Made by a program: the position numbers and the translations under genes. Positions 4,893 through 36,338 of a stretch of 39,249 bases of DNA are shown in pieces. Positions within the stretch are counted from its first letter, which is position 1, and each line of letters starts with the position of its first letter. Origin of the DNA: a virus (Duplodnaviria; Heunggongvirae; Uroviricota; Caudoviricetes); the IMG/VR virus record IMGVR_UViG_2861079508_000003, positions 1 to 39,249 of that record; one strand, 5' to 3'. The notes under the pieces were generated by a model, which saw nothing but the letters and a program-made list of their open reading frames with translations, was not told the DNA's origin and searched no databases.

Positions 4893-5497
4893 TAAGCAGC
4901 CGCTCCTTCTAATTCGTCTCGTCTGATGTTGTAAACGTCCTGCGCTTTGTGCTGCTCCGGTGTGCCTTCGAGCATCTTCCACGCTTTGGCGAACGCCTGT
5001 TTAAGCTCTTCTACGGTGTTTTTCTGCAATGCTGCGTCAGTGAATGCTTTTAGAACCTGTTCAGGTGTAGGTGATGGTTTTGATTGCTTTGCTGCTGCGT
5101 TCTGCTGATGTTTATGCTCGTCGGTATCTGCATCTTTCGCATCATCAATGCCGAACAAACCATTGAGGCAATACTTGCGTGCATAAGAGCTTGTAGCTCC
5201 AGTAACTTGTGCAGAATCCATTCCTTTCTTGCTTTCTTCCTCTCGTGCAAGAGCGGTTGCCGTATGACTGTTTTCGCCATCGGTAATAGTTGCCGTGGCT
5301 TTCACATAATACCGATCACCAATCAACACAACTTCATCGCTGATTGATAAAAACAGGCCATTCAGTAACGGCTTAACGCCTTCAAGAATGTCTTCGCAGC
5401 TTCTGTATTTATATTTACCGAATGAGTTGTACTGATTTTTTGGCGCATTCAGATTCTCCTGAATGGCTGCCAGTCTTGCGTAAAATTCTTTGCTCAT
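4892..5497 (-). CDS. erf: Essential recombination function protein Erf (single-strand annealing protein)
   Basis: From ATG at 5497 the N-terminus MSKEFYARLAAIQENLNAPKNQYNSFGKYKYRSCEDILEGVKPLL.. closely matches recalled P22 Erf; the track's longer form starts at an upstream alternative codon. Confidence 0.85.
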   Translation of the reverse strand: MSKEFYARLAAIQENLNAPKNQYNSFGKYKYRSCEDILEGVKPLLNGLFLSISDEVVLIGDRYYVKATATITDGENSHTATALAREEESKKGMDSAQVTGATSSYARKYCLNGLFGIDDAKDADTDEHKHQQNAAAKQSKPSPTPEQVLKAFTDAALQKNTVEELKQAFAKAWKMLEGTPEQHKAQDVYNIRRDELEGAAA

Positions 5498-7354: not shown

Positions 7355-8014
7355 TTAACTAAATGTCTCTTCAGGCCACTGGCTGGCGATAACTTTCCCT
7401 ACTACGGAACAGCTATCATTGCATGGGATCATTGGATATTGCGGGTTTAGTGGTTGTAGGAACACCTGACCGCTATCCCTGATCAGTTTCTTGAAGGTAA
7501 ACTCGTCACCGCCAAGTCTGGCTATGCAGAAATCTCCTGGCTCAACAGCCTGCTCAGGGTCAACGAGAATTAACATTCCGTCAGGAAAGCTTGGCTTGGA
7601 TCCTGTTGGTGCGGTCATGGAATTACCTTCAACTTCAAGCCAAAACGCACAATCACTGGCTTTTTTGGTTGTGCTGACCCATCTCTCCGCATCACCTTTG
7701 GTAAAGGTTCTAAGCTCAGGTGAGAACATCCCGGCCTGAACATGAGAAAAAACAGGGTACTCATATTGTTTTTTAACGGGGGCAGATGAGTATTCGCCAG
7801 CAGGTGAAAATGTACCGTCGTGGTTGAATGAGACGTTATCAATACCAAGGTATTTAAACACCACACCAATCTCGTCAAGAGATGGATGACGAGATCCGCG
7901 CAACCAGTGACCAATTCCACCCTGCGTCATACCAAGCTCTTCAGCTAACTTCTCTTGAGTTATGCCGAGCTCTTTCATTCTGGATCTAGCCAGTTCATAC
8001 CATTTCATTTTCAT
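7355..8014 (-). CDS. cI: CI-type prophage repressor (HTH N-domain, LexA/S24-like autocleavage C-domain; 219 aa)
   Basis: N-terminal HTH (..[21 protein letters not shown]..) and C-terminal domain with ..[22 protein letters not shown].. as in P22 C2 / lambda CI; divergent from cro across an operator region. Confidence 0.85.
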
Positions 8015-8757: not shown

Positions 8758-9186
8758 ATGACTCCGTGTTTGGAATTTGGCGGTTTAAAGGACAGCAAGG
8801 GTTATGGAAGGGTTTGGATTAATGGGAAAAAAGTATTTGCTCATAGATTTGCTTATTGTGTGGCAAAAGGGATCCAGCTTGAAGATATAGATGGCTTAGT
8901 AATTCGTCACGCATGTGACAATCCTTCTTGTATTTTACCTTCTCATTTATGTGCTGGGACAAGTCAGCAAAACGCAAATGACATGGTGGAGAGAAAAAGG
9001 CAGGCATTTGGAAGCAGGAATGGTAGGGCAAAATTAACTGAAGATGATGTAAGAAACATCATTAGTGAATATATACCAAGACACCCCTTATTCAACACAA
9101 GGGCATTATCAAAAAAATATGGAGTAACGCCAAATTATATAGCTGCTATTTGCAGAGGTGAAAAATGGAAGCACATAAAAAAATAA
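8758..9186 (+). CDS. HNH homing-endonuclease-like protein (HNH_3-type core plus C-terminal HTH; 142 aa)
   Basis: ..SKGYGRVWINGKKVFAHRFAY..VIRHACDNPSCILPSHLCAGTSQQNANDM.. fits the HNH_3 pattern; inserted between cII and the replication genes. Confidence 0.7.
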   Translation: MTPCLEFGGLKDSKGYGRVWINGKKVFAHRFAYCVAKGIQLEDIDGLVIRHACDNPSCILPSHLCAGTSQQNANDMVERKRQAFGSRNGRAKLTEDDVRNIISEYIPRHPLFNTRALSKKYGVTPNYIAAICRGEKWKHIKK

Positions 9187-11882: not shown

Positions 11883-11914
11883 AGGCCTGCTGGTAATCGC
11901 AGGCCTTTTTATTT
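11883..11914 (+). terminator. Rho-independent terminator after the helicase gene (tR2-like)
   Basis: Perfect 8-bp stem AGGCCTGC/GCAGGCCT with 8-nt loop followed by TTTTATTT. Confidence 0.55.
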
Positions 11915-12170: not shown

Positions 12171-12585
12171 TTTCATTCTGCACGAAACCAATAAATCACA
12201 ATTCTGGTTAGTTCTGAAACAAATCCTCTCTACTGGCAAACGCTGGCGAATCAAAATATCTGAGTACCGTGAGAAGCGTACATTGTCACAAAACAATCTG
12301 CTGTGGATGTGGAATGCAGAAATAGCCGCACAGTTATCTGCTGCTTCTGCTGAAAACTTCACGCCTGAAGAGGTTCATGAGTGGCTGAAAGATATATTTT
12401 GTCCGGCTAAAAGGGTGACGATTTTTAATATTACACGATGCGTTAAATCAACACGTCAGCTTGATATTGGAGATATGCACAAATATCTGACCGATATTGA
12501 CCAGTGGGCGCATCAGAAGGGATTACGACTAACCATTCCTGATAATTGCGAGTACCGGGATCTAAAGGAGAGGCAAGTAGAGTGA
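12160..12585 (+). CDS. ninB: NinB-like recombination protein (141 aa)
   Basis: ..RTLSQNNLLWMWNAEIA.. resembles the NinB/Orf motif (lambda ..RSLDQNRKLWACL..); first gene of the nin region. Confidence 0.7.
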   Translation: MMNDFILHETNKSQFWLVLKQILSTGKRWRIKISEYREKRTLSQNNLLWMWNAEIAAQLSAASAENFTPEEVHEWLKDIFCPAKRVTIFNITRCVKSTRQLDIGDMHKYLTDIDQWAHQKGLRLTIPDNCEYRDLKERQVE

Positions 12586-13109
12586 CTATCAAATCAAATA
12601 CGCCAGCGTCAGATAGGTATCGGCTTATTGAGGATTATCTGTATTTAGACGGAGATACAGTCAGATACAAAAAGGACTCGCTAAAACACCCCAACCACAG
12701 CCACCGGGCAGGAGATGAAATTAAAACATCGATAAATGGATCTGGGTATAGACAGGTGTGTTTTGCAGGCATTCAGATGTTTGTTCACGTAGTTGTTTTT
12801 GCGCTGCACAACAAAAGAATGCCATTGAAAAATATTGACCATATTAACGGAAACAGGCTGGACAATTCCCCAAAAAATCTTAGGGAGGCAGGCCGGATAG
12901 CAAACAGCCGAAATCAGAAAACTAAGTGCAATAGCCGTTCTGGAATAAAAAATGTTTTATGGAACAAGCAAAAAAATAAATGGGCCGTTCAAGTGCGCAC
13001 AGATTTTGGCCGGTTGTATTTTGGGCTCTATGAAGATCTTGAACTTGCTTGTTTGGTTGCCAGTGAGGCTATCAACAAATATCACGGACAATATGCGAAG
13101 GTTGTATGA
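12546..13109 (+). CDS. HNH homing-endonuclease-like protein with AP2-type DNA-binding domain (187 aa; may start at in-frame GTG 12582)
   Basis: ..KNIDHINGNRLDNSPKNLREA.. (HNH_3) followed by ..NKWAVQVRTDFGRLYFGLYEDLELA.. (AP2-like); GTG at 12582 has an AAGGAG RBS and overlaps the ninB stop. Confidence 0.7.
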   Translation: MRVPGSKGEASRVTIKSNTPASDRYRLIEDYLYLDGDTVRYKKDSLKHPNHSHRAGDEIKTSINGSGYRQVCFAGIQMFVHVVVFALHNKRMPLKNIDHINGNRLDNSPKNLREAGRIANSRNQKTKCNSRSGIKNVLWNKQKNKWAVQVRTDFGRLYFGLYEDLELACLVASEAINKYHGQYAKVV

Positions 13110-13636: not shown

Positions 13637-13815
13637 GGCGACAGCGACGAAGTTTCACCGATATCATCTGCGAAAACTGCAAATACCTTCCAACGAAACG
13701 CTCCAGAAATAAACGCAAGCCAATCCCAAAAGAATCTGACGTAAAAACCTTCAACTACACGGCTCACCTGTGGGATATCCGGTGGCTTAGAGAACGTGCG
13801 AGGAAAACAAGGTGA
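13633..13815 (+). CDS. ninE: NinE protein (60 aa from ATG at 13633)
   Basis: [60 protein letters not shown] is near-identical to recalled lambda NinE. Confidence 0.8.
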
Positions 13816-13982
13816 TTGACCCAAATCGAAGTTACGAACAAGAAAGCGTCGAGCGAGCTTTAACGTGCGCTAACTGCGGTCAGAAGCTGCATGTGCTGGA
13901 AGTTCACGTGTGCTCCGATTGCTGCGCAGAACTGATGAGCGATCCGAATAGCTCAATGTACGAGGAAGAAGACGATGAATGA
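13812..13982 (+). CDS. ninF: NinF protein (56 aa, GTG start), not in ORF track
   Basis: Manual translation [56 protein letters not shown] closely matches recalled lambda NinF; GTG overlaps the ninE stop. Confidence 0.7.
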
Positions 13983-14697
13983 GTTAATAAATGGCAATGC
14001 CATCAAAATGACAAGCATTGAAATCGCTGAGTTGGTTGGTAAGCGTCATGACAATGTGAAACGTACCATCGAAACGCTGGCTAAAAATGGTGTTATCCGG
14101 CTTCCTCAAATTGAGGATTGTGGAAGAATCAATGGGTTAGGCTTAAATCAAAGTTTTTGTGTGTATGTGTTCGAAGGCGAACAAGGTAAGCGAGATAGTA
14201 TTGTTGTTGTTGCCCAGTTGTCGCCAGAGTTCACCGCTCGTCTTGTTGACCGTTGGCGAGAGCTTGAAGAAACTGCGGTTAATATCCCCAAAACGTTACC
14301 GGAAGCGTTGCGCCTTGCTGCTGATCTTGCTGAGCAGAAAATGCAACTGGAAAACCAGCTCGCAATTGCCGCACCTAAAGTTGAGTTTGCCGATCGAGTT
14401 GGCGAGGCCAGCGGAATTTTGATTGGAAACTATGCAAAGGTTGTTGGAATTGGTCCAAACAAACTGTTTGCGTGGATGCGCGATCACAAAATCCTTATTG
14501 CTTCAGGTTCCCGGCGCAATGTGCCAATGCAGGAATATATGGATCGCGGCTATTTCACAGTGAAAGAAACAGCGGTCAACACAAATCACGGAATACAGAT
14601 ATCGTTCACCACAAAAATCACCGGGCGTGGTCAACAGTGGCTGACCAGAAAGCTGCTCGATAACGGAATGCTGAAAGTAACAGGGGAGGCTGCTTAA
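13975..14697 (+). CDS. Rha-family / KilA-C-type phage regulatory protein (putative antirepressor; 240 aa)
   Basis: N-terminus ([35 protein letters not shown]..) fits the Rha pattern; C-terminal half resembles KilA-C antirepressor domains. Family from memory. Confidence 0.6.
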   Translation: MNELINGNAIKMTSIEIAELVGKRHDNVKRTIETLAKNGVIRLPQIEDCGRINGLGLNQSFCVYVFEGEQGKRDSIVVVAQLSPEFTARLVDRWRELEETAVNIPKTLPEALRLAADLAEQKMQLENQLAIAAPKVEFADRVGEASGILIGNYAKVVGIGPNKLFAWMRDHKILIASGSRRNVPMQEYMDRGYFTVKETAVNTNHGIQISFTTKITGRGQQWLTRKLLDNGMLKVTGEAA

Positions 14698-14987
14698 TGG
14701 CTAACCTACGCAAAGAAGCGCGCGGAAGAGAATGCCAGGTACGTATTTACGGCGTATGCAATGGCAATCCTGAAACCACAGTTCTGGCACATTACCGGAT
14801 GGCTGGAATTTGCGGAACGGGAATGAAGCCTGACGACCTGATCGGCGCATGGGCTTGTAGCGCGTGTCACGATGAAATCGACCGACGCACCCATAACCTC
14901 GACAACAAAGACGCCAGACTTTACCACCTCGAAGGCGTAATCAGGACGCAGGCGATACTGCTGAAGGAGGGGAAGATTAAGCCATGA
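14697..14987 (+). CDS. Zinc-binding nin-region protein (DUF1364-like; 96 aa)
   Basis: Four-cysteine arrangement (CQVRIYGVC..., CSACHDE) and position between the Rha-like gene and rusA. Confidence 0.5.
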   Translation: MANLRKEARGRECQVRIYGVCNGNPETTVLAHYRMAGICGTGMKPDDLIGAWACSACHDEIDRRTHNLDNKDARLYHLEGVIRTQAILLKEGKIKP

Positions 14988-15346: not shown

Positions 15347-15531
15347 ACGCCACAATTCAAACGATACCAGAGCTTCTTATCCAGACACGAGGCAATCAGA
15401 CCGAAGTGGCAAGGATGCTTTCCTGCGCAAGAGGAACAGTGCTCAAGTACAACCGAGACAGCAAAGGCGAGCGTCACGTAATAGTTAACGGCGTCCTGAT
15501 GGTCAAACAGGGCAAGAGGGGAAGACGATGA
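15343..15531 (+). CDS. ninH: NinH protein (62 aa)
   Basis: ..GNQTEVARMLSCARGTVLKYNRD..VIVNGVLMV.. parallels lambda NinH (..GNQTEVARRLKCSRGTVRKYVDD..AIVNDVLMV..). Confidence 0.7.
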   Translation: MNATIQTIPELLIQTRGNQTEVARMLSCARGTVLKYNRDSKGERHVIVNGVLMVKQGKRGRR

Positions 15532-16046
15532 GCATAAGAGAACTAAACCTCACCAAAGAACAGCACGATTGGCTGAATGGCTGGCTTGAACTGTGGGGAG
15601 CATGGGTTTATTCAGGTCGTCTGGAAAAGCGCATGAGCAGCGTAATAGCTAAGTTCATGGAGAGCGTAGAGCCGGGAAGAGTTATGACAAGGCCAATGTG
15701 TAATGATGATGATGGAATGTTGATTTCTCAGGTCGTCGATTCCGTCATGTACATTGACAAGAAAGCCTTTGGCATCCTCCTCAGCTACTACGCTCATGGT
15801 TCATCTAAGCGAGCAATTGCATCCTACTATCACGCGACTGCAAAGCCACGCAAGATGTGTGGACGTGGTGGCGAGGGATGGAGAAAACCTTCACTGGCAA
15901 CCTGTAGAAACGAAATTGACGACATCCTGAAAGCGTCATTATTTGTTTTATACCAGCCAATGCAAAATGCTTTCAAAATGCGTAAACGTGTTGAGAAAGT
16001 TAAGCATGTTGCCGTTAAAAGCCTTGACATGCAATTAGCCATTTAG
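15528..16046 (+). CDS. Q: Late-gene antitermination protein Q (non-lambda Q family; 172 aa)
   Basis: Last gene before the late promoter and lysis genes; resembles antiterminator Q proteins of the phage-82 type from memory; a promoter and close terminator follow. Confidence 0.65.
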   Translation: MSIRELNLTKEQHDWLNGWLELWGAWVYSGRLEKRMSSVIAKFMESVEPGRVMTRPMCNDDDGMLISQVVDSVMYIDKKAFGILLSYYAHGSSKRAIASYYHATAKPRKMCGRGGEGWRKPSLATCRNEIDDILKASLFVLYQPMQNAFKMRKRVEKVKHVAVKSLDMQLAI

Positions 16047-16053
16047 CCATAAT
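16024..16053 (+). promoter_or_regulatory. Putative late promoter PR' (-35 TTGACA, about 18-bp spacer, -10 CATAAT)
   Basis: Consensus -35 hexamer overlapping the last codons of Q, with a good -10, as for lambdoid PR'. Confidence 0.5.
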
Positions 16054-16096
16054 ATTCACATATGCTGCTGCTTTTGCATTCAGCAACCATCACAAG

Positions 16097-16118
16097 CCCA
16101 CCTCCTGTGGGTTTTTTT
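16097..16118 (+). terminator. Putative tR' terminator downstream of PR'
   Basis: Hairpin CCCAC-CTCCT-GTGGG followed by TTTTTTT about 50 nt downstream of the predicted start. Confidence 0.55.
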
Positions 16119-16240: not shown

Positions 16241-16753
16241 ATGAAAGAAATAAAATTAACGCCAGAAATGGTGCTTTCTGTTGTTGATTACAATCCATCA
16301 TCAGGCGACTTTCACTGGAGATGGAGGCAGGGGAGAGAGAGGACCACTTTGACATGGAACTCTCGTTTTGCTTTCAAGAAATGCTCATCAATAAATTCTG
16401 ATGGGTATTTAATGATTATGATTAATGGTAAAGCATACCCTGCTCACAGACTGGCATGGTTGATTGTTTATGGCACCATGCCCGATGGTTTTATTGATCA
16501 CATCAACAGGGTAAGAACAGATAACCGGATATCAAATCTTCGTCTTGTCACTCATTCCGAAAATATGCAAAACAGGAAAATTCAGAAGAATAATAAATCT
16601 GGATACCGTGGCGTGTCTTGGGATGCTAAGTACGGGAAATGGAGAGCAAGAATTAATGCGTCTGGAAAGTGTATTAACCTTGGATACCATGACACTGCCG
16701 AACTTGCCGCTGCGGCTTTTGAGGCAGCCAGAATGAAATATCATACCGTTTAA
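16241..16753 (+). CDS. HNH homing-endonuclease-like protein with AP2-type domain (170 aa)
   Basis: ..AHRLAWLIVYGTMPDGFIDHINRVRTDNRISNLRLVTHSENMQNR.. (HNH_3) plus ..SGYRGVSWDAKYGKWRARI..GYHDTAELAAAAFEAA.. (AP2-like); inserted in the late-operon leader. Confidence 0.75.
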   Translation: MKEIKLTPEMVLSVVDYNPSSGDFHWRWRQGRERTTLTWNSRFAFKKCSSINSDGYLMIMINGKAYPAHRLAWLIVYGTMPDGFIDHINRVRTDNRISNLRLVTHSENMQNRKIQKNNKSGYRGVSWDAKYGKWRARINASGKCINLGYHDTAELAAAAFEAARMKYHTV

Positions 16754-18423: not shown

Positions 18424-18563
18424 TAGCGATAATTTTACTCATCATCCTTCACATCTGGCTCTGTAGACAGGGTGGTGATCACTTCTGGAGTGAATCCAGA
18501 TTAAACATCTCATTGCTGATGCTTGAAGTTGAGCATCTGGCGCGCGGTAAGGGGCTGCGTTGA
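18420..18563 (+). CDS. Possible small hydrophobic protein (47 aa), not in ORF track
   Basis: ATG overlaps the Rz stop (ATGA); N-terminus [15 protein letters not shown].. is hydrophobic. Only coupling and hydrophobicity support it. Confidence 0.25.
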
Positions 18564-18928
18564 GATAAGAGCCAGTTCATTACAAAGCCTATCTACGGGT
18601 GGGCTTGATAATGAAACCGTGATTTACATCCCCACAATCCGGGTATGTAAAAGATAGTTCAGGCGAGAACAGATTTAACTAAATCTGTGCACCACCAGTT
18701 ACGGCAGTACCGCGAAACAACCCAAGCCAGTAAGTGGGGAAATAACACTGGCAGCCACTGAAAGATGAACCTCCTGCCTTATGGCAAAAAAGATTCTTTG
18801 TGGTGGCGGACTGATGGAAAAACATCGGTTATTGCAGAGACCATTCAGTGAGTGGTCTCGACAATGGCTTATACCCTACACGGGATAACTTAACTGATAT
18901 CCCTTTTAACGGATAAACGGAGCCAACA

Positions 18929-34787: not shown

Positions 34788-35273
34788 TTATCTTATGTTA
34801 CTGCTACTGTTGCATGTGACTGTATTTCCAAACCCTGAATTGCAGTTTGTGTAAGTGTCAACGCGTGTTGGATAGGGTTGAGTTATAACAGGCTGTCTCG
34901 CTTTTTGCTCGATCGCTTGCATTGTGTTTACAGCCTGATAATTCAATAAAGCCTGCTGGAATGCTTGGCTTTGTGCTATTTGTTGGGCTTGTTCTTGGCT
35001 TTGTAATTGAACATAAAGATTCTGAAGCTCAAGTCTTGCCTGTGCGTCACTTATCTTGCCTTCATCGACACCTTGCCCGAGCATCTTTGCAGCAAGGACA
35101 TACAGCTTAGGTGTTGGTGCTGATGCCATGCGTGAGTCGTTCTTCACACTGGCATCAAGGCAATTAGCCATATCGCTAAGCTTTTGATAGCGTTGTTCGC
35201 AACTTGCTTGATAGTCACTTACTTTTGCGCATCCAACCAGCAGAAGCGGGATAATTAACAGTGATTTTTTCAT
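34788..35273 (-). CDS. Putative lipoprotein (signal peptide with lipobox LLVGC; about 161 aa from internal ATG)
   Basis: MKKSLLIIPLLLVGCAK.. is a textbook lipoprotein signal peptide; Gln-rich helical middle; lies downstream of mnt on the same strand, where P22 carries sieA. Confidence 0.55.
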   Translation of the reverse strand: MKKSLLIIPLLLVGCAKVSDYQASCEQRYQKLSDMANCLDASVKNDSRMASAPTPKLYVLAAKMLGQGVDEGKISDAQARLELQNLYVQLQSQEQAQQIAQSQAFQQALLNYQAVNTMQAIEQKARQPVITQPYPTRVDTYTNCNSGFGNTVTCNSSSNIR

Positions 35274-35343
35274 ATGGTTAACTCTCCTTAGTTTTTCACA
35301 GGATATCATGAAGGCTATGCCATTTTAGCCGGAAACTAGATTT

Positions 35344-35643
35344 CTATGTTTCCTTTTTATTATTGCTATACATGGTCTTAAGCGTATCAAAGACAATTTT
35401 CTTAACCATCTCAGATTGTTGTTCTGCCATACGCTCTGCATCGTCAATGTAAACAGATGCAGAGCTTTCTTTAGCCAATGATTCTTCAATCGCTGCAATT
35501 ATCTCTGAGTTCAGAGACCTGTTATTCATCTTCGCACGCTGTTTAATCTTCGCGTGGAGTTCATGCGGAAGTCTCAAGTGAAACTGCGCCTCGTCGTATT
35601 TGCTGTACATCCTTGATGCCTCACCAGTTGGGTGGAATGGCAT
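35344..35643 (-). CDS. mnt: Mnt-like ribbon-helix-helix repressor (Arc/MetJ family)
   Basis: ..FHLRLPHELHAKIKQRAKMNNRSLNSEIIAAIEESL.....DDAERMAEQQSEMVKKIVFDTLKTMY.. parallels recalled P22 Mnt; start could be Met1 or Met12 (35610). Confidence 0.7.
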   Translation of the reverse strand: MPFHPTGEASRMYSKYDEAQFHLRLPHELHAKIKQRAKMNNRSLNSEIIAAIEESLAKESSASVYIDDAERMAEQQSEMVKKIVFDTLKTMYSNNKKET

Positions 35644-35741
35644 CGTAACCTACTGGATAAATACTCAATAGTACCATTTCGGTATGCAATCACATCATGG
35701 TTGCATCATATCATTCGTCTGGAGCAATGAAATGTCAGATA

Positions 35742-36281
35742 TCACCTACCATGATTCTCATGATAACCATAGGTCTTTTCAGCCTCACGCCTTACAGCAA
35801 TTGCATCATCGAGACACTTAAAGTATCCGAGATTAATGCGCTTCCCTGCGTCGCTAATATATGCCACCCACTTTTTATGGGTCTTATGCCATGAAACACC
35901 TGCGCACCCAGATGTATTGTTTGTGTATTTAGATTTGTTTTTTAGGTTTTCACCGAGACTAACTAGACGCAGGTTGTCTATTGAATTATTTAACCCATTA
36001 CCATCTTTATGGTCAATTTGCATTCCTGAAGGGATTTCACCATAAAACATTTCCCATATTATCCTATGGGCGGCGTATATTTTATCTTGATACCTGATAA
36101 TTATATAAGATGTTTTCCTGTTCTTGTCCTTGAATATATGTCCTGCAGGCTTTTCTTTAGAGATATTGAACATTTTGGGTCTTGAAAGATATTGGTCACT
36201 CCAGTACAGGAGTCCATCGTCTTTTAATACGAATACTTCGTTCCAGTTCATGTTAACCACCTTTAAATAAAGTTCACTCAT
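35742..36281 (-). CDS. HNH homing-endonuclease-like protein with AP2-type domain (179 aa)
   Basis: ..[47 protein letters not shown].. (HNH_3) plus ..[36 protein letters not shown] (AP2-like); occupies the position of arc/ant in P22. Confidence 0.7.
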
Positions 36282-36338
36282 TATACAAAAAACATGCTAG
36301 CAATGAATATTGCTTGCTTAACATATAGAGAAATTAAA

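Follow-up and report, generated by a model that had tools for sequence, protein, structure and literature searches.

A predicted roi orthologue in the nin region of a P22-like coliphage genome, probably neither a relocated nor a substitute P22-type antirepressor gene

If a P22-like prophage has no ant gene in its immI region, and its nin region encodes a protein that databases call an antirepressor, has control of derepression moved from one locus to the other? The question is raised by the IMG/VR virus record IMGVR_UViG_2861079508_000003, a P22-like (Lederbergvirus-type) coliphage genome whose 39,249 nucleotides (nt) were analysed as a whole and are called the window here. A preliminary description had reported a protein of 240 amino acids (aa) with a Rha-type N-terminus and a KilAC C-terminus, had placed its gene in the nin region and had noted that immI is without ant. 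These observations were all borne out: a Pfam domain search recovered both domains, the Rha call being marginal; the gene order from ninB to Q fixes the location; and tblastn with P22 Ant and Arc confirmed the gap in immI. The same description went on to propose that derepression control had moved from immI to the PR operon, and for this we find no support, given the identity of the protein as Roi, the coexistence of both systems in phage N7, the layouts of HK620 and Gally, the S24-type repressor, the five repressor types found with a single Roi allele and the timing of expression. We consider it very probable that the open reading frame (ORF) is roi, encoding a DNA-binding regulator with a site in its own gene, and that this is not a P22-type antirepressor gene that has moved, nor a replacement for one.

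The ORF at 13975..14697 (+ strand) runs from ATG to stop and encodes 240 aa plus the stop. In the Pfam search, ANT/KilAC (PF03374) matched aa 126–228 with E=1.8e-32 and 112 bits (cutoff 25.3), and Phage_pRha (PF09669) matched aa 12–99 with E=6.4e-8 and 33.5 bits, a marginal pass of its cutoff of 29.9. The NCBIfam Rha model TIGR02681 scored 17.3 bits, which is under its cutoff of 45.95. Over its full length the protein is 88% identical to HK022 Roi (240/241 aa), rising to about 98% over aa 65–240; in HK022 Roi itself, ANT/KilAC lies above the Pfam cutoff and Phage_pRha, at 25.2 bits, under it. Identity is 95% to the Roi proteins of both N7 and Gally and 81% to that of phi24B. A megablast search with the nin region returned HK629, HK75, CUS-3, HK140, HK97, HK620 and mEpX1 at 94–97% identity, and the original GenBank records of HK97, HK620, CUS-3, HK629 and mEpX1 name the gene roi or DNA-binding protein Roi. 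The RefSeq re-annotation of the same gene reads anti-repressor, and PHROGs assigns the window protein to phrog_63, "anti-repressor Ant". A sequence search of the PDB with the window protein gave no match.

Judged by sequence similarity, the product of the ORF is the orthologue of Roi of coliphage HK022, the phage for which this nin-region gene, roi, was originally defined. The gene was already known, having been named since 1996, and is an ordinary and very common one. In that year, Clerget and Boccard, writing in J Bacteriol, reportedly described HK022 Roi as a DNA-binding protein of the helix-turn-helix type whose gene lies between P and Q. The protein is said to have a site inside its own gene, adjoining an IHF site, to block lytic growth in IHF-deficient hosts, and to resemble P1 Ant1 and KilA in its C-terminal half. 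The 1996 work is cited in PMC3430580, and as far as the title given there goes, wild-type Roi blocks lytic growth if IHF is absent. Our literature searches for functional data on Roi returned nothing beyond genome-comparison mentions and the Gally transcriptome.

The window protein has little in common with the antirepressor of P22. P22 Ant consists of P22_AR_N and P22_AR_C (Pfam), neither of which is present in the window protein, and BLASTP between the two gave one 37-aa match at chance level. Their likeness lies solely in the "antirepressor" label and the P22-like phage background, whereas P22 ant belongs to the immI locus, under mnt/arc/sar control beside the tailspike gene, and roi to the nin region, 21 kb from immI. 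In the window, immI (34.7–36.3 kb, from the injection-protein gene to the tailspike gene) holds three genes, namely a 173-aa ORF, a Mnt homologue and a gene for an HNH+AP2 endonuclease. When P22 Ant and P22 Arc were run against the whole window by tblastn, neither gave a significant match. The P22-like phage N7 (MH717096) has a complete immI, with an Arc-family gene in the mnt position, arc and an ant whose product is 69.5% identical to P22 Ant, and it also carries roi, in the context ninF-roi-HkbD-rusA-ninH-Q. Since roi and a complete mnt-arc-ant coexist in N7, roi is no stand-in for ant. In HK620, roi is present and mnt and ant survive only as remnants; in Gally, roi is present and mnt is followed directly by the tailspike gene. 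The combination of roi with no ant is hence already known from these two phages. In the Stx phages and one Escherichia coli contig, a different Ant (ORF6N + P22_AR_C) is encoded directly upstream of roi. The presence of roi is independent of ant in immI. A relocated or substitute P22-type ant is made improbable by the unrelated domains, the different locus and the coexistence with mnt-arc-ant in N7.

The Ant of phi24B (ORF6N/AntA + P22_AR_C) is a closer positional parallel, as it too is encoded in the nin region of the PR operon. It is a separate gene, however, lying directly upstream of roi in Stx phages and absent from the window. It was for this Ant, not for roi, that a part in faster derepression from the PR operon was suggested (PMC3064807), so that the idea of an antirepressor made from PR is already in the literature.

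The distribution of roi agrees with its being a common gene. We detected roi-related DNA in 1,106 of 5,426 complete E. coli genomes (about 20%), with up to 4 copies per genome, and roi-related proteins in 1,621 phage records; the wider family amounts to 7,118 clusters at 50% identity. The slot can be defined by its neighbours, with ninF (or ninE/ant) on one side, ybcO-rusA or ninG on the other and Q further downstream; the window gene lies in it, and the slot is likewise conserved in HK620, N7 and Gally and in six contigs of metagenomic or genomic origin. Because about one-fifth of E. coli genomes have the gene in this position, both with and without a P22-type antirepressor in the phage, we regard it as an ordinary roi and not as a relocated ant. 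A 100% identical Roi protein is encoded by eight IMG/VR contigs. Three contigs with the same Roi protein (L013–L015, protein P0003) differ in their replication modules and have either P22-type or HK97-type head genes. From the identity of Roi across such differing replication and head backgrounds it follows that the nin block with roi moves as an independent mosaic unit.

The place of roi within its operon bears on when the protein could be made. Gene order in the nin region is ninB, HNH, Dam, ninE-like, ninF, roi, YbcO/HkbD, RusA, NinH and Q. The first 8 nt of roi are shared with the end of ninF (13812..13982, +; Pfam NinF), and the stop codon of roi runs into the start of the YbcO/HkbD-like gene (14697..14987, +; Pfam YbcO, E=1.8e-44). 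A tR2-like intrinsic terminator at 11883..11906 (+), corresponding to the annotated tR2 of HK620, marks the start of the nin region, and transcription from PR passes through roi before it reaches the ORF at the place of the late antiterminator gene Q (15528..16046, +), which was assigned by synteny with HK620, N7 and Gally. No promoter-like site was found upstream of roi. Roi would thus be transcribed solely within the N-antiterminated PR operon, following cleavage of the prophage repressor. As the gene lies downstream of tR2 in that operon and has no promoter-like site of its own, the protein is made only after PR has been derepressed, and it therefore cannot start the induction of its own prophage.

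The repressor points the same way. Its gene (7355..8014, −) encodes HTH_3 and Peptidase_S24 domains (Pfam), the composition of the self-cleaving cI/LexA type, and because it is of the Peptidase_S24 type, SOS induction needs no antirepressor. In its C-terminal domain the protein is nearly identical to the repressor on contig L013, which we take to be lambda cI, and in its N-terminal helix-turn-helix it differs. The C-terminal domain of the window repressor is presumably lambda-cI-like, with its cleavage-site and catalytic motifs kept, and the protein as a whole looks like a hybrid. This repressor is shared by phages of P22-like and of HK97-like virion background (contigs L014 and L015). Gally, which has the same layout, was induced 18-fold by ciprofloxacin, and roi was listed there among the transcriptional regulators (PMC9928086). 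A pairing of Roi alleles with repressor types was hinted at by the first 7 loci and overturned by the 48-locus sample: among 48 loci with both genes, the window Roi allele (N1) occurs with five repressor clusters and the HK620-type allele (N4) with at least four.

Alignments of roi alleles show that nt 1–62 are invariant, nt 63–200 (aa 22–64) are hypervariable and the part encoding KilAC is essentially invariant. The hypervariable mosaic block (14038..14166, +) falls into at least five allele classes with about 60% nucleotide identity between classes and nearly invariant flanks; the turn, recognition helix and wing that it specifies belong to the N-terminal helix-turn-helix. This domain, a Rha-type winged helix-turn-helix (aa 12–99; 14008..14271, +), is followed by a long linker helix with two allelic forms (aa 108–144; 14296..14406, +; AlphaFold model and allele alignment) and by the ANT/KilAC domain (14350..14658, +), in which a second helix-turn-helix (aa 150–170) precedes beta-hairpins (Pfam, alignment and model). 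AlphaFold reached a predicted local distance difference test score (pLDDT) of 39 with 25 close alleles, and a diverse 57-sequence alignment was used instead, giving a mean pLDDT of 76.6. In that model, the N-terminal winged helix-turn-helix (aa 11–101) comprises a strand, helices 14–21 and 25–38, a beta-hairpin at 45–67 and helices at 68–101, with pLDDT 85–92, and, overall, a long helix connects two helix-turn-helix domains. Among compact structural matches to the model, MerR-like DNA-binding domains rank best.

Rha proteins of phi80 and P22 share the N-terminal Phage_pRha winged helix-turn-helix, including an I-N-x-L-G motif. They differ in that the C-terminus of P22 Rha is ORF11CD3, not KilAC, and in that P22 rha follows the lysis genes, whereas roi lies in the nin region. 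Like Roi, Rha is reported to inhibit phage growth in IHF-deficient hosts (Henthorn and Friedman 1995; Pfam description). The post-lysis slot that holds rha in P22 and Gally has no ORF longer than 50 aa in the window (18424–18928), so Roi is the sole Rha-domain protein of this genome.

Within the hypervariable block lies a perfect 6-1-6 palindrome, CCTCAAATTGAGG, at 14104..14116 (gene nt 130–142), a candidate Roi operator. A perfect match to the IHF core consensus, WATCAANNNNTTR (AATCAATGGGTTA), starts 10 bp downstream of it (14127..14139, +) and is one of three perfect matches in 39 kb. The two together are a candidate, on sequence grounds, for the Roi and IHF sites reported inside the gene. 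The palindrome is present at the same offset in other alleles with a different sequence: CCTCAA-A-TTGAGG in the window, HK620 and N7 (6/6), CCTGCA-T-TGCAGG in the P0007 class (6/6), CCCCCA-A-TGGGGG in P0078 (6/6), CCTGCA-T-TGCAGC in HK022 (5/6), CCCCCA-A-TGGTGG in the P0010 class (5/6) and CCTTCA-A-TGCAAA in the phi24B class (3/6). It thus reaches at least 5/6 at one offset in four of five allele classes, with three half-sites (CCTCAA, CCTGCA and CCCCCA) that show compensatory changes at positions 3–5 between alleles. The background for such palindromes is 0.5% of window positions and 0–2 offsets per allele, and no second offset was common to two allele classes.

The palindrome at 14104–14116 is the sole perfect copy within the window. 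Only two copies with two mismatches were found there, one of them at 14374–14386 (CCTAAAGTTGAGT), 270 bp downstream in the invariant part of roi, and the three copies with up to two mismatches, against 1.55 expected, are within chance. The IHF motif has identical codons in five of seven alleles; this conservation is ambiguous, because the same DNA encodes the I-N-x-L-G residues of the Rha family. A role of the palindrome as an RNA hairpin was rejected, since a loop of 1 nt is too short to close the 6-bp stem. HK022 Roi shares with the window protein the Rha + KilAC architecture, the nin slot upstream of Q and the in-gene palindrome and IHF consensus at the same position, and differs in carrying another allele of aa 22–64 and the other palindrome given above. 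As the recognition helix and wing belong to another allele, the DNA specificity of the window Roi is predicted to differ from that of HK022.

The Stx-phage class of Roi (phi24B roi, at 5287–6015 of contig L006, and 15 viral contigs; recognition helix NVRISIERL) has the poor 3/6 palindrome and one mismatch in the IHF motif. It is unlike all other allele classes, and its phages also carry Ant directly upstream of roi. A further repeat, an 18-nt imperfect inverted repeat at 14216–14264, lies within the invariant region of the gene.

These features would fit the following course of events. Once the PR operon is expressed, Roi would act as a sequence-specific DNA-binding protein. The palindrome at 14104–14116 within its own gene, which differs between alleles, is probably what its equally allele-specific recognition helix reads. 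IHF bound at the adjacent consensus (14127–14139) would assist Roi binding, and the outcome would be IHF-dependent self-control of roi on a transcript that runs on into Q. The effector would be the invariant KilAC domain. That the hypervariable block carries an allele-specific operator for its own recognition helix is a tentative proposal, which we place somewhat short of an even chance. We think it unlikely, though worth stating, that the mosaic unit of about 130 bp is a specificity cassette, consisting of the recognition helix, its own operator and the IHF site, that provides self-control on the Q transcript while the invariant KilAC acts on a conserved host target such as RecA/SOS and so sets whether co-resident prophages fire. 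The allele-specific palindrome beside the IHF consensus is the only new element here, and it makes DNA recognition by Roi directly testable.

The main alternatives to a self-binding regulator concern the KilAC module, which is found very widely among phages of enterobacteria, and arise from its relatives. The founding proteins of the KilAC family are Ant1/Ant2 and KilA of phage P1. P1 Ant targets the C1 repressor, which is unrelated to S24-type cI repressors, and P1 KilA kills the host. Roi aa 73–234, that is, the linker helix plus the KilAC module, are 57% identical to P1 Ant1 and 55% to P1 KilA, with alignments that begin at Ant1 residue 178 and KilA residue 81. Outside this module the proteins differ: KilA has an N-terminal KilA-N, for which Roi has no match, Ant1 has no Pfam domain at its N-terminus, and the P1 genes belong not to a lambdoid PR operon but to the immI/kilA-repL region. 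Could Roi nevertheless be a true antirepressor, whose KilAC inactivates cI-type repressors, speeds derepression after PR has fired and cross-induces heteroimmune prophages during infection? The similarity to Ant1 speaks for this, P1 Ant being cited as a known antirepressor (PMC9043618), as do the names of PHROG 63 and the RefSeq family, and knockout of the nin-region Ant of phi24B cut pR' reporter output to about 27–56% of wild type (PMC3064807). The target of P1 Ant is of another repressor family, however, and KilA, nearly as similar in the module, is no antirepressor. Roi also coexists with a P22-type Ant in N7 and with a P22_AR_C-type Ant in Stx phages, one Roi allele pairs with five repressor types, and the only experiments on Roi point to DNA binding and an IHF phenotype. 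Literature searches gave no report of anti-immunity for roi phages such as HK022, HK97 and HK620. We consider an antirepressor role very unlikely. The "anti-repressor Ant" label in PHROGs, RefSeq and PGAP derives from the KilAC of P1 Ant, and it should not be taken to show that a phage can be induced by way of an antirepressor.

Work in Listeria suggests another function for the module. AriS of Listeria phage phi10403S and Gp42 of A118 inhibit SOS, probably via RecA, and the effect was mapped to KilAC itself, which alone blocks SOS gene transcription and lysis (PMC9043618). By analogy, Roi could be a dual regulator, whose N-terminus controls phage genes while KilAC dampens the host SOS response, probably via RecA, and holds back, instead of favouring, the induction of co-resident prophages. 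Phage_pRha + KilAC is among the AriS-like architectures listed in that study (PMC9043618), and the window Roi has this architecture in Pfam; its KilAC shares 32% identity with A118 Gp42, which was among the proteins tested; and an invariant KilAC next to a hypervariable N-terminus is what a conserved host target would lead one to expect. The AriS result, SOS inhibition instead of antirepression, also counts against the antirepressor reading (PMC9043618). However, 32% identity between phages of hosts from different phyla is low, AriS has AntA/AntB as its N-terminal domain, in a Firmicute host, and its SOS inhibition, demonstrated as it is, appeared only upon over-expression, deletion mutants remaining at wild-type SOS levels (PMC9043618). 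The analogy comes from Listeria proteins, and we judge such a role of Roi quite unlikely. Least probable to us, by a small margin, is that Roi is mainly a kil-type inhibitor of host growth or division, with DNA binding merely limiting its own dose. The KilAC-only toxin CreP is bacteriostatic and arrests cell division, and the related phi11 Gp07 is named in the same report (bioRxiv 2024.01.05.574328). Gp07 combines Bro-N with KilAC as P1 KilA combines KilA-N with KilAC, and the block to lytic growth without IHF, as worded in the 1996 title, could be read in the same sense. No toxicity of Roi has been reported, though, about one in five complete E. coli genomes carry the gene intact, albeit repressed, and PADLOC found no defence-system match for the window protein. 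As the activities of KilAC proteins vary so widely, the name "antirepressor" is a transferred label and predicts nothing.

The immI region of the window (35344–36293) is itself a remnant, in which arc and ant have been replaced by a reverse-oriented HNH+AP2 endonuclease gene. The orphan Mnt homologue (35344..35643, −) has an Arc-like ribbon-helix-helix and the Mnt C-terminal domain and is 49% identical to P22 Mnt, and the HNH_3 + AP2 gene (35742..36281, −) occupies the place of arc and ant in P22 and N7. After the orphan mnt, a Pant-like sequence, ATACTCAATAG, lies at about 35659–35669 (its P22 counterpart is ATTCTCAATAGGTCCACGGTGGACCT), followed by an imperfect palindrome, ATGCAATCA-5 nt-TGGTTGCAT, at 35684–35706. 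In Gally, mnt was 40-fold up in macrophages and its deletion had no phenotype (PMC9928086). The 173-aa ORF (34788–35309, −) has a lipoprotein-like N-terminus (LLVGCAK) and no Pfam match, and stands at the position of P22 sieA. VSe13 and Gally have homologues in the corresponding position, and the gene may serve superinfection exclusion or be a moron. Downstream of roi, a PR'-like promoter (16024–16053) is followed by a terminator (16094–16114). Four HNH-type endonuclease ORFs are present in the 39-kb genome, at 8758–9186 (+), 12546–13109 (+), 16241–16753 (+) and 35742–36281 (−), and two of the four also encode an AP2 DNA-binding domain. Their insertion sites fall between conserved modules: one ORF follows cII, one lies within the nin region, one follows Q and one is in immI. 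The genome looks as if it bears a heavy load of homing-endonuclease-like genes.
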